Part shown: piece after piece, positions 42,474 to 56,006 of the stretch
Layout: each line of letters starts with the position of its first letter
How positions within the stretch are numbered: the first letter of the stretch is position 1
Origin: Harriotta raleighana
Lineage: Eukaryota
Direction: 5' to 3'
Assembly: GCA_050575255.1 (NCBI GenBank)
Contig: JBNZDD010013689.1
Location: 948,841-1,012,840 of the forward strand
Length of the DNA: 64,000 nucleotides
Notes under the pieces: generated by a model
What the model was told of the DNA's origin: nothing
Database searches by the model: none
Seen by the model: the letters and a program-made list of their open reading frames with translations, nothing else
Position numbers and translations under genes: made by a program

Positions 42474-42730
42474 CACTGTGGTTTCACAACACTGTCGCTG
42501 AAGAATTCAGTGTGGGAGTCAATGTATTTTGGAAACATCTTCCAGCAGACTGCTATGATAAAACCGACATGTATGGAAATAAAGATCCCACAGCAGCCTC
42601 AAGAGCCATACAGATTTTAGACAGAGCCCTGAAGACATTGGAGGAACTTCCTGAAGAATACAGAGACTTTTATGCTCGTCGAATGGTCCTACGAATTCAG
42701 AGCAAATCATACAGCAATAATTATGAGTAG
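42474..42730 (+). CDS. TYW5: TYW5 exon 8, terminal (distal His of the JmjC iron triad)
   Basis: cgcag|CA...[47 protein letters not shown]...[23 protein letters not shown]. Spliced CDS is 954 nt (317 aa). Confidence 0.96.
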
Positions 42731-42891
42731 TGACTGTATCCTTCTGTTGATCAATTCATATATAATGATACAAGTATGGTATATCTATTTAATGTCAGAA
42801 GAAAAATTATCAATTGTATCCATTAAAATAATTTGTGATTTTCTTCAAGTTACATCTTTAAATGATCAGATTAACTTAGTGGTACATTAAC

Positions 42892-42897
42892 AATAAA
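42892..42897 (+). terminator. Candidate TYW5 polyadenylation signal AATAAA (alternative at 43253)
   Basis: First AATAAA ~160 nt after the stop codon. Confidence 0.45.
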
Positions 42898-45518
42898 TTA
42901 GTCATTTCAAACGCAGGAGAGCGTTTATATTTTTCTTTATATTGTAATCCTTTAAGGATTATTCCACTAATATTGCTTTTAATCAAAGCACCATTAAATA
43001 TTCCCATATAGTGTCTTAATACTGTGTCATGCACAGTCAATAGTGAAGTCTCATGGCATACGTTTCAAATTATGTATGAAATTGCCCAATTTTGCTCTGC
43101 TTATAAATGGCAGTTTTGCAAATTTTATAAATGGAAAGTAACACCCAATTAAGAGAATTTTTAAATGATGAAATCTATTTTGTGCCTGTAGCTTAATACT
43201 GTAGAGGGATTTGACAAAGCTACAAAGTTCTATAAATAATTTTCTGGTAAAGAATAAAATAAAGCATTGCTAGTGATCTTGATCTAGCTTTTTAATTCAG
43301 TGATACACACACACATAAACGAGCATTTTATCCAAAAGACAAAAATAAGCTGAAGTGCTATTCAGCTCCGCTCATGATTTAATAAGGTTCTTAATGTTTT
43401 ATTACTTTTGTTTGTAAGTTATGAGCACTGTTGTGCATTTCATCCACTGTATGGAATACAAGACAACAGATTACATGCTACAGAGTGAACCTTAGATAGA
43501 AGCTTGGGAATGGTCGTGGGAACTAGTTCTGAGAACTGAACTTGCTGTTCTGCTGAGTTTTCCCACCAGTTGGGGTTGAGGAGCTTTTAATTCAAGGTGT
43601 GTGGAGACCATTTCTTTTGGCAAGGTGAAGGTGTCCCAATCACACATGGTGAAACCTGACTTAGAAAGTGTTTCTCATATTGCCATCACCCTTTGGTAGC
43701 AGGGTTAGGAATTTGGAGGGGGAGAGCGGATGTCAAAATCTGTTACTCCTTCCATTTTAAATAGCACATGACTTTTTCAGACCGGATTATTTTCCAGTAG
43801 AGCGCAAACACAATAACCTGGTTGGATGCTATTTGAGTAAAGCCAGTTCAGTTGTGTATTTCCTGACCACTGTTGCCGGTAGAGCTGGATGGCTTTGTTA
43901 GAGGTGTATAGGACTGTGCCCTCTCCAGCTGCATCATCTCCTAGGACATGACCGTGTGATTTCATGGGTACCTTCAATAAGTGAATGGCCATAAAGCAAC
44001 AAGTTTTCTTTCCTCTCTCAGCACCCCCCTCCCACAACCACATTATAATAGAATCATAGAATATTACAGCACAGAAGGAGGCCGTTCAGCCCATCGTGCC
44101 TGTGCCAATTCGTTAAAAGAGTTACCCAATCAGTCCCACTCCACCACTCTTTGGGACTAGCTATTCAGAGCCTGTGTCGCCCAACATTAGTGAGTGTGAG
44201 AGGATGAGGTCTTGGCTATTCAGTATATGGCATCCAAGTGTTGGGTTTAAATGGTAACATCAAGTACTGTAATGGAATATTTGGGATTGGGAGAGCTGAT
44301 GATTTTCAATGAAAATCTCTTATCAGTACCGCTAAGTAATAATACTTGCATTTTGTTTTGACTAGTTAATATCGGGGGATATCCCTAAGTGCTTCATTTA
44401 CTGTGGCATGTCTTGTGTATCTGTGGGTGCAAGAGGCAGACAATCTGAGCATGGCAATGGGCCACAAACATCCATAAAGTCAAACGTCAATTTTATTTGG
44501 AGGATTGCTGGCCAGGACAGTGGGAGAGAATAGCTTCCACTTTCCCCTCTGAGCAGACAGATCAGGTTTAACATCTCCACAAAGGACGGTACCTCCAACA
44601 TTGTAGCACACCCCGGTACAGTACTGATGTGTCAGCTTAAGACTTCTGAGCTAAACTCCTGATGTGGGGTTTGAACCCACAACCTTCTGACCCAGAGATG
44701 AGAATGCTACCACAAAGTGCATCTGTGATTCATTGTGACAGTTGCTGCAATGTAATTACAGATAAATGAGGAAATTAACAGGAAATATGCAGATCAGATG
44801 GGCGAATATGGATTATGGGACAAGTAAAATATTAACACGATTAATAGTACTGGGTGTAAAGGTTATTCTGTATAGCGACACTTCGCAGACAAAGGAACAT
44901 AAAGGAGCTCACCATAGATATTTAAATTGTTTTGACAAATCTGAACAAAAGTCTGTAGAATAGGAGAGCCAAAAAACATGATCTTTTCACTAGAAATAAA
45001 TTAACTGTCTCAATGATACGTTATATACTAGCGGGATTGATACCATTGTAGGCGATTTTCTAATGCAAAAACCATATGTAATATGCAATATAATATATAG
45101 ATATATATATATATCCTTGGCTCTGGGTATTAAGAGTTTTTGATTCCCTGTATTGAGTGTTTTTCTAACACCCTGATTATATGTGTTAGGCACCGACACA
45201 CTAAAAAAAAAGTTCTCGCTTGTCACTCGAAATGAGGATCTCGACTCCAAACGCCTAACGCCTGTGATTATACTGTACATCAATATTTTTACAACATTGC
45301 AGTTATCACAGGCCAACCCTAGCTTAACGTTAAGTTTATCAGCTCTTGACAGCAATGTTTGTTTGCAGCCGGTTCCCACCAGAATGCCCTCACAGCACAT
45401 TACTGTACACCCAAACCGTGTGTACATCAAACGTATACTTTCCGTTTTGTTTATATATATATATGTATATATTTAAAAGAACACAGGAAAACACGTGCGT
45501 GTCACTGATCAATTGACT

Positions 45519-45524
45519 TTTATT
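45519..45524 (-). terminator. Candidate polyadenylation signal of the orexin-like gene
   Basis: tttatt (AATAAA on minus) ~800 nt downstream of the stop codon at 46322. Confidence 0.4.
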
Positions 45525-53796: not shown

Positions 53797-53930
53797 GTTG
53801 CTGGGAAAGTAGGTCAGGCAGCATCTATGGAGAGATGTGACTTTCCTCTCTCCATAGATGTTGCCTGACCTGCTGAGTGACTTGTTTTTATTTCAGGTTT
53901 CCAGCATCTGCAGTATTTTGCTTTTTGTTC
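53797..53930. mobile_element. Palindromic element, copy 2 (internally deleted)
   Basis: ggtcaggcagcatctatggagaga...tctctccatagatgttgcctgacc. Confidence 0.75.
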
Positions 53931-54077
53931 AATTTACTTACTTGCAATCCTGTAATTGAGATACATTTTATTTCTACTGTGTCACCATCAGAACTCATTA
54001 GGCACTGAACTGCTTTTATATCTCTGCAATTTGTACAATCATTAAAAAAATTCAGCATAGAAGGTCATTCAGCCCAT

Positions 54078-54330
54078 TTTGGAACTCCATCCCCCAGTGC
54101 CTTCACCTCGCTTCCTCCCTTTCCTCTTTCAAGGCCGGACTCAAGACCTTTCTCTTCGACCGTGCCTTCAACGCCCCTCTCGAGTCTCTACCCCCTCCTT
54201 GCTCCCACCCTTCCCCCCCTCGCCCTGAACATTTTCCCTTGCTCGGGTTCTGAACCAATCTGTCCAGCGCCTTGGGACGTCCTCCTGACGTGAAACGCGC
54301 TCTATAAGTGTAATTTTGTTGTTGTTGTTG
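54078..54330 (+). mobile_element. L2 LINE extreme 3' end with (GTT)n tail
   Basis: tggaactccatcccc...ctcaagacctttctcttc...cagcgccttgggacgtcctcctgacgtgaaacgcgctctata(gtt)n; related copy at 54688-54922. Confidence 0.8.
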
Positions 54331-55232
54331 TTTGTCTGTGCTGTGCTGGTTCCCCATTCACTGCTCTCTCCTCATAGCCTTTTATATCTGCAATAGAATC
54401 ATAGAATTTTAGCACAAGGCACTTTAAAATTTATTGACTAGGATGAGGTGATGAGAGGTGACCTATTTCCTGATTATGAAAGGAAACTAAGATGAAAGGA
54501 ATATGGAGCACATTGGCAGGGCCATTAAGTCCTTTTGATATTTGAATACCATCTCTCATCAGAGTAGGACCTTGGATAAACCAAGCCTCTCAAAGGTTCG
54601 TCCATCGCTGAAGTGCCCTACTAGTGAGATGTTGTGCTGAACTAATGAGATGTGACCAGAAGTTATTTTCCCATTTTCACCATTGGCTGGTAAGCCTTTA
54701 GCTACTTTGCGCCGAACCTCTGGAACTTCATCCCGCAGTCCCTCCACCTCGCCCCCTCCCTGCCTCCTTCATGTCCGGCCTCAAGACCCTCTTCTTCGAG
54801 GTTCCCATCGGTCACTCCAAATCCCCACCTTTCCCTCCACCCTCCCTGTACCCAGCTCGGGTCTGAAACAATGTCTGTCCAACCCCTCGGACGTGAAAGG
54901 CGCTATACAATGTCATTTTGCAGTAATGAACAGGCTGCTGCTCAGTCCTATTAAGACACCCAATTCACACGATTGTATCCATTCTCGTTTTTATTGCGTC
55001 AAGTGTAGCACATCACACACCCGAATGCAATGCAAGGAAGCTGCATTAACAGTACTTCAACGTACAAACAATTCAGACTCTGGCAAAGGTGTGGTTGTCA
55101 GAATGAACAGGTTCCAAAGGGGAAATCTACACAGATTCACCCGTCTATTTATCGTCCAGCTTAGCATGTCAAGATCCTGTTTTCACGTGTAATTCTACCA
55201 TTCCAATCGGGAAGGAACACTCAAGACTGCCC

Positions 55233-56006
55233 TCAGAACATTTTGAGGACTCGAAAGTGGTTGTTGAGTGAGGGCGGCTGATTCTCAAAGTGAAGTTGGT
55301 CCGTTACGTTTGCGTCGAGCTCCCGAAGGAGACGGACAAATATTTGGTGTTCCTTCCCGATCCAAGCCCTCATGCTGTCCTGCACTTGGTAAGGCGTCAC
55401 GTGGGTTTGCACGGGGATCCCAGTCAGAGCCAACTCTCGCAGGACCTCAGGGCTGGTCACCCAGGTGTTGCTTCCCCCGGCATGACCCCCGTCCAACCAG
55501 TACACTTGGCTGATGGTCTGAATGAAGGCTGCCAGTTCCTCGTCCTGCCGAGCTTGGCCCAGCTCATGCAGGAGCTGGTTGAGAACCACGCAGCCTTTAC
55601 TGAACCCGATCAGGATCGACCTGAGCAGCGCATCGCCGTCTTTCTCACACTCTCTCCCGGTGTCCGTCCCGCTCGGAGCCGCCACCCCGTTTGGGGTGTG
55701 AGCGGACGCTCCTCGGTCGGCCCGCCCCGGGCACAGGAGGCCGACGCTCTGCTTGGCAGCATTGCTCAGCAGCGCACGGAGGTGCCTCAAGGCCCCGTGG
55801 TCCGGGCTGTGCTTGGGCGCACCGAACAGATCGCTCTCCACAAAGTTGTCGAAGCAGCTGAACTTGTGCAGGTGCATGCGCGAAGCCTTCACAATCCAGA
55901 CATGGCTGCCGGGGAATCTCCGCAGAAGCAGGGCTGCCGTATCCTCCAGGCTCCATTGCTGCCAGTGGGCATTCTCTGTGTGGTGGGACATCAACTCCCG
56001 GTAATT
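55233..56006 (-). CDS. C2orf69: C2orf69 (UPF0565, mitochondrial esterase-like protein) exon 2
   Basis: ttgtag|AAT; NYRELMSHH.EN..WQQWSLE...RMHLHKFSCFDNFV...LIGFSKGCVVLNQLL.EL...YWLDGGHAGGSNTWVT...HVTPYQV.D.MR.WIGKEH...NHFRVLKMF*. Confidence 0.95.
   Translation of the reverse strand, partial: NYRELMSHHTENAHWQQWSLEDTAALLLRRFPGSHVWIVKASRMHLHKFSCFDNFVESDLFGAPKHSPDHGALRHLRALLSNAAKQSVGLLCPGRADRGASAHTPNGVAAPSGTDTGRECEKDGDALLRSILIGFSKGCVVLNQLLHELGQARQDEELAAFIQTISQVYWLDGGHAGGSNTWVTSPEVLRELALTGIPVQTHVTPYQVQDSMRAWIGKEHQIFVRLLRELDANVTDQLHFENQPPSLNNHFRVLKMF

Follow-up and report, generated by a model that had tools for sequence, protein, structure and literature searches.

Orexin, the wakefulness hormone, is usually treated as a one-gene, two-peptide system. 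The available text of PMC7365868 describes one orexin gene and suggests orexin-B as the prototype; the peptide stands straight after the signal, is amidated at a Gly-basic-basic site and is held by the bridges C6-C12 and C7-C14. In the passages available, PMC5207463 builds on Yun et al. 2015; its Table 1 has both HCRT and HCRT2 among the post-2R members, the latter a second hypocretin precursor credited to genome duplications. The window analysed here, 64,000 nucleotides of the chimaera Harriotta raleighana (C13689:948841-1012840, on contig JBNZDD010013689.1), contains a second prepro-orexin gene with an intact frame and one orexin-A-type peptide, which we call HCRT2 and which is very likely the whole-genome duplication (WGD) paralogue of a canonical HCRT elsewhere in the same genome. 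A second, A-only precursor departs from the one-gene, two-peptide view.

The kind of gene is not wholly new, since it has already been named in print, and it is apparently unstudied. A preliminary description of this locus had been unsure whether it was already described, a point on which PMC5207463 is informative. As the passages available there name neither species nor locus and contain no sequence or peptide design, we infer that its HCRT2 is very likely the gene of the window. Our literature searches brought up no paper that deals specifically with a second orexin gene, nor any on the expression or function of HCRT2; Yun et al. 2015 and Hara et al. 2018, with their supplements, may already describe the gar or shark gene. 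The accessible part of the supplement of PMC10987541 holds only the canonical Callorhinchus precursor and gives 0 matches for the gar HCRT2 accession, while the available portions of PMC4131245 and PMC6504862 add nothing on HCRT2 and that of PMC12952989 has 0 orexin matches. A parallel from another family is CRH2, a second ohnologue present in a holocephalan and a holostean and missing from well-studied models, which, unlike HCRT2, has already been studied (available text of PMC9353778).

The window gene lies on the minus strand between TYW5 and C2orf69 (47610-46322) and has two exons, read from splice consensus (Table 1). Exon 2 passes the Pfam Orexin model (PF02072; 64 bits, with the cut-off at 22.6; E 1.7e-17), and its residues 22-52 match orexin-A in the PDB (1WSO; E 2.5e-11), with 22 of 31 residues identical in the printed alignment. 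HCRT2 is a member of the prepro-orexin family. A hydrophobic core spans the first 12 windows of exon 2, ahead of the peptide, and the predicted signal peptide leads directly into the peptide, the cleavage site being placed from hydropathy and the alignment with look-alike precursors. The precursor contains one orexin motif only, with no second (orexin-B) motif, and beyond Gly-Lys-Arg its tail is low-complexity and unconserved. The gene resembles canonical HCRT, as described in the available text of PMC7365868, in its two exons, signal-peptide intron, peptide after the signal, four-Cys spacing, C-terminal half and Gly-basic-basic site, and differs from it in its single peptide without orexin-B, its other locus and its place outside the canonical clade.

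From these features, processing can be predicted. The signal peptide would take the HCRT2 precursor into the secretory pathway, where cleavage by signal peptidase would make residue 22 of exon 2 the new N-terminus; the other end would be released by a prohormone convertase at Lys-Arg, leaving the Gly of Gly-Lys-Arg to be consumed for C-terminal amidation. The product would be one amidated peptide of 31 residues, held by the two disulfides Cys6-Cys12 and Cys7-Cys14 (human numbering). In its C-terminal part, from Leu16 to the dibasic site, 17 of 18 columns carry the residue that is most frequent among 164 canonical precursors, so that the mature peptide is predicted to activate an orexin receptor, which here would be the sole one found in the genome (C13710), with a possible role in arousal or feeding. 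Sequencing runs listed as containing exon 2 include none of RNA, which speaks neither for nor against expression. The low-complexity, unconserved tail would fit a real and old gene that survives in this species only as a silent relic or a near-pseudogene. We regard this as quite improbable, given the open frame, the canonical splice sites, the four Cys, the intact receptor-binding half and the amidation signal, and given that 17 alignment columns do not vary among the 8 rows of HCRT2-type and amphioxus precursors, 15 of them in the peptide and cleavage site.

The Pfam Orexin search of the genome returned six matches, of which two are strong, one at C13467:240k (E 1e-15) and the other in the window (E 1.3e-14); the remaining four have E 0.05 or worse. 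The locus on C13467 (239378-240370) is a canonical two-peptide HCRT, surrounded by a GH3-domain gene, a 1041-codon phospholipase-C-like frame, an ELK-type KCNH, a Ras-family/RAB5 gene, a bromodomain/KAT2 gene and a DEAD-box helicase, an order that we take to be the GHDC-HCRT-KCNH4-RAB5C-KAT2A-DHX58 of human 17q21. A further own-genome match, on C13728 (E 0.03), was rejected as an orexin locus, as its frames of at least 50 residues contain no orexin motif. By every test of orthology with canonical HCRT the window gene falls outside: it has no orexin-B, it lies outside the canonical branch, and the position directly beside the KCNH4-type gene is occupied by the gene on C13467. The proposal of the preliminary description, that the window holds a second HCRT paralogue and WGD ohnologue, is supported by this separate canonical HCRT, by the placement in the tree and by collinear PLCL-orexin-KCNH blocks. 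That proposal had started from human C2orf69, TYW5 and MAIP1, which are presumably adjacent on 2q33 with no orexin gene between them.

The shared paralogon is in fact tighter than had been proposed. Along the orexin direction both loci read PLCL, orexin and KCNH in the same order on one strand, with RAB5 beyond (Table 1). On C13689, SATB and C2orf69 stand between PLCL and the orexin gene, and TYW5, the MAIP1-like gene, SPATS2-like and KCTD18 stand between the orexin gene and KCNH. RAB5 is spread over four contigs, PLCL and ELK-type KCNH over three, and SATB, KAT2 and SPATS2-like over two; the ELK-type KCNH matches on C13467, C13697 and C13689 are of 100, 88 and 80%. We take the four blocks to correspond to the human 2q33, 17q21, 3p24 and 12q13 paralogon. 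A block present four times is the usual mark of two genome doublings, and the origin of HCRT2 is probably to be sought in genome duplication. Both orexin genes carry a phase-0 intron in the signal peptide, which argues that HCRT2 is no retrocopy.

Our own-built profile detected no orexin gene beyond these two in 200 kb of C13581 (partly N-rich) or 420 kb of C13697, where its best domain scores 5.7 bits, compared with 78.8 and 68.8 at the real loci. With orexin in only two of the four paralogous blocks, and with a date that has no cyclostome anchor, an old segmental duplication before the shark/bony-fish split, outside any WGD, might also have copied the orexin block. We consider this unlikely, as it leaves aside the fourfold occurrence of the block, with RAB5 on four contigs, PLCL and ELK-type KCNH on three and SATB, KAT2 and SPATS2-like on two, and its presumed human correspondence.

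Relatives of HCRT2 were sought among proteins. None of the 119 proteins listed by a first homologue search is HCRT2-type; the full HMMER scan gave 43 representatives, four of which are single-peptide vertebrate forms, from Scyliorhinus torazame (catshark; scyTo_2000007), Chiloscyllium punctatum (bamboo shark; chiPu_0005965), Polyodon (paddlefish; 'orexin-like') and Lepisosteus (gar; LOC107078776). A fifth, from Huso (beluga sturgeon; 'orexin-like'), was added by profile search, among the best 120 of 230 matches; the other 110 may include more single-peptide forms. Like the window gene, these encode one four-Cys peptide and no orexin-B, and a Phe three residues before the first Cys is found in the window gene and in 4 of the 5 look-alike species, compared with 1 of 164 two-peptide forms; their tails are unrelated to that of the window gene. 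Catshark, bamboo shark and gar have a canonical-type precursor too, on a contig of differing length by record, and the consecutive catshark identifiers scyTo_2000006 and 2000007 suggest that curators noticed both genes. When the 21 one-motif proteins were sorted by eye, 9 were truncated or mis-predicted canonical forms, 5 were amphioxus and 7, including the window gene, were HCRT2-type. A search with residues 1-60 of one shark look-alike returned itself only, and hence no further shark form.

The gene has been kept, as the preliminary description proposed, but not in this lineage alone, in view of the look-alike forms in sharks, chondrosteans and gar. Its proposed loss in mammals is probably part of a wider one: no teleost, lungfish, coelacanth or tetrapod HCRT2 is present among the proteins retrieved, which suggests losses in these lines. 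Among the database precursors, that of Lepidochelys kempii has five tandem orexin motifs and that of Condylura three, which are either real expansions or model errors. Outside vertebrates, Branchiostoma 'orexin-1' has a single four-Cys peptide after the signal, with the same Phe-Pro start and Cys spacing as the window gene and a divergent peptide middle, in an invertebrate chordate. Ciona, another invertebrate chordate, has a single orexin-A-type peptide according to the available text of PMC10987541.

The tree was built from 29 rows and 56 columns covering the signal end and first peptide, with 20 canonical rows hand-picked for taxonomic spread, 6 HCRT2-type and 3 amphioxus rows. A branch with 99/98 support separates all 20 canonical rows from the rest, the window gene included, so that the phylogeny proposed earlier as a check does not group the gene with canonical HCRT. 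Joining it to the two chimaera canonical genes is rejected by the approximately unbiased (AU) test (p-AU 0.0149). A copy of canonical HCRT that was duplicated or transposed in chimaeras alone and afterwards lost orexin-B would account for the degenerate state of the canonical gene (see below), which may follow a recent duplication. This is barely credible in view of the AU test, the 31% identity between the aligned HCRT2 and canonical precursors and the like-designed genes in sharks and ray-finned fish. In addition, a random insertion would fall into either other PLCL-to-KCNH interval with a chance of 0.13%, or 0.07% with orientation. Both types in sharks and gar, together with the tree and the AU test, indicate that the duplication predates the cartilaginous/bony fish split.

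Several observations weigh against an origin of HCRT2 as a WGD paralogue. The six HCRT2-type rows form no clade in the best tree, where amphioxus falls among them, and a forced HCRT2-type clade is not rejected (p-AU 0.189) on a short alignment. The probable orthology of the shark, sturgeon and gar genes is judged from their sequence and one-peptide design. Among the named matches, none was identified as a lamprey or hagfish orexin, so that the date of the duplication has no closer bound than the shark/bony-fish split, which it precedes. The RAB5 of C13689 is inverted, about 100 kb past KCNH, and the own-genome search gave no KAT2 copy on C13689.

Judged against the 164 two-peptide precursors, canonical HCRT is degenerate in this assembly, a state that the preliminary description missed, as it missed the absence of orexin-B from the HCRT2 precursor. 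In the tree the gene pairs with Callorhinchus HCRT (support 99/93), from which its orexin-A differs at 9 of 31 residues. This orexin-A has Pro at Cys7 and Arg at Cys14 (0/164 each), both partners of one bridge, and retains the last eight residues and Gly-Arg-Arg. Since both Cys of one bridge are gone together, the A peptide may still be produced with its single remaining bridge. In the orexin-B of this gene, two conserved positions carry Pro (0/164 each), Ala replaces Thr (1/164) and the end is Gly-Glu-Ala, as against Gly followed by a basic pair in 163 of 164 precursors. With a run of five G, a Gly-Arg-Arg stands in another frame, and a stop comes soon after. One slip in the G run could be an assembly error, which would leave the many substitutions unexplained.

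With one disulfide pair and a processable orexin-B gone from the canonical gene, HCRT2 is the likely source of the most standard orexin ligand in this animal, and may supply most of its orexin. The orexin receptor gene was found once (C13710:1087000-1132000) and is OX2-type by Pfam. A second one was not found in this possibly incomplete assembly, as PF03827 gave one match and the exon-3 search returned the gene itself and one 37% match; gar has both receptor types (accessible part of the supplement of PMC10987541).

Tentatively, and with somewhat less than even confidence, we suggest that HCRT2 keeps the ancestral, amphioxus-like one-peptide design, which would make orexin-A the older peptide, orexin-B having arisen by internal duplication in one ohnologue after the doubling. 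The canonical gene would now be decaying and HCRT2 would have taken over, leaving an animal with no orexin-B, one receptor and mainly the paralogue lost in mammals. The A-type peptide alone in HCRT2 and amphioxus contrasts with orexin-B as the prototype in the available text of PMC7365868. With an A-only precursor in a collinear block, common to sharks, sturgeons and gar, the order of events (A first, B later in one copy) becomes testable, and the predicted HCRT2 peptide offers a natural orexin ligand for study. Where antibodies to orexin-A have been used for mapping in sharks, sturgeons and gar, the signal may combine the products of two genes. With its damaged canonical gene, this chimaera may be a vertebrate naturally devoid of orexin-B, a point of relevance to the control of sleep and arousal in cartilaginous fish.

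The structure of HCRT2 and its surroundings are summarised in Table 1. The intron is placed within the predicted signal peptide, and a pyrimidine-rich AG acceptor precedes exon 2. A second Met forms the last codon of exon 1 and is a possible real start; in the alignment, a Met at the corresponding place opens two shark look-alike precursors.

Table 1 Features of the HCRT2 locus (positions in the window) and gene order in the four paralogous blocks (contig names in the position column)
Feature	Position	Strand	Remarks
Probable MAIP1 exon 1	25204..25557	(-)	head to head with TYW5
TYW5 last exon	42474..42730	(+)	tail to tail with orexin gene
Candidate polyadenylation hexamer	45519..45524	(-)	~800 bp past HCRT2 stop; consensus match only
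HCRT2 exon 2	46322..46735	(-)	137 codons + stop; rest of signal peptide, orexin-A-type peptide, Gly-Lys-Arg, tail
Gly-Lys-Arg amidation and dibasic cleavage signal	46571..46579	(-)	directly after peptide
Predicted mature 31-residue orexin-A-type peptide	46580..46672	(-)	residues 22-52; four Cys, orexin-A spacing
HCRT2 intron as assembled	46736..47571	(-)	~709 bp without 127-bp overlap artefact
116-bp duplicate of acceptor and exon 2 start	46766..46881	(-)	adjoins single N at 46765
HCRT2 exon 1, coding part	47572..47610	(-)	13 codons, GT donor, phase 0
C2orf69 last exon	55233..56006	(-)	upstream neighbour of HCRT2
PLCL(+), HCRT(+), KCNH(+), RAB5(+), KAT2(+)	C13467		own-genome searches
PLCL(-), SATB(+), orexin(-), SPATS2-like(-), KCNH(-), RAB5(+)	C13689		own-genome searches
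PLCL(-), SATB(+), KCNH(-), RAB5(-), KAT2(-)	C13697		own-genome searches
SPATS2-like(+), RAB5(+)	C13581		own-genome searches

The gene as assembled is interrupted by a single N, next to which the 116-bp copy of the exon 2 start is likely an assembly overlap artefact, because flank repeats of at least 40 bp are found at 11 of the 16 N runs of the window, compared with 1 of 28 control positions. The N and the duplicate could be taken as signs that a misassembly put the orexin segment between TYW5 and C2orf69, which the preliminary description had named as a result that would speak against it. However, the N-free stretch 39838-46764 links exon 2 to TYW5, just as 46766-56127, equally free of N, links exon 1 and the exon 2 start to C2orf69. 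With orexin sequence on both sides of the N, each N-free up to a neighbour gene, HCRT2 is tied to both, and its place is, moreover, the paralogous position of the canonical locus. Misplacement of the segment is very unlikely, and the probability that we attach to it is close to negligible. Other duplicated blocks beside N runs, at window positions 17762-23600, 14000-14420, 24864-25180 and 30977-31260, including a doubled MAIP1-like exon (20500-20766 and 22999-23265), are likely assembly overlap artefacts as well.

The gene order MAIP1-like(-), TYW5(+), orexin-like(-) and C2orf69(-) is seen in the window as first described. The TYW5 and C2orf69 names rest on matches of 42476-42727 to human C2orf60/TYW5 (PDB 3AL5, E 4.9e-45) and of 55239-56006 to Pfam C2orf69 (E 8.1e-85), and we take 31558-41758 to hold further TYW5 exons from their motifs. 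The name MAIP1 is weakly backed: the gene at ~25200-25560 is presumed to be MAIP1 from its motifs, it has a weak Tim44-like Atlas match (scores 0.78-0.79), and its Pfam search gave no match. Between C2orf69 and SATB, an open frame at ~C13689:1016400-1016900 has no Pfam match and resembles what we take to be FTCDNL1.

Three further genes of the paralogous blocks were observed. An ELK-type KCNH at C13689 ~672000-775000 adjoins KCTD18 and SPATS2-like, and may be a fourth Kv12 ohnologue; human 2q33 presumably has no ELK-type KCNH. On C13581, near SPATS2-like and RAB5, no ELK exon was found in a stretch with many N. The RAB5 gene at C13689:583500-588200 has four open exons and a variant P-loop and is the fourth RAB5 of the genome, where humans have three RAB5 genes. 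Just upstream of canonical HCRT, the PLCL-type gene at C13467:225430-228552 is the 1041-codon frame, with EF-hand, X, Y and C2 domains; we know of no PLCL gene beside HCRT on human 17q21. Its X domain is 41-46% identical to those of the other two PLCL genes, and it is the third PLCL-type gene of the genome.

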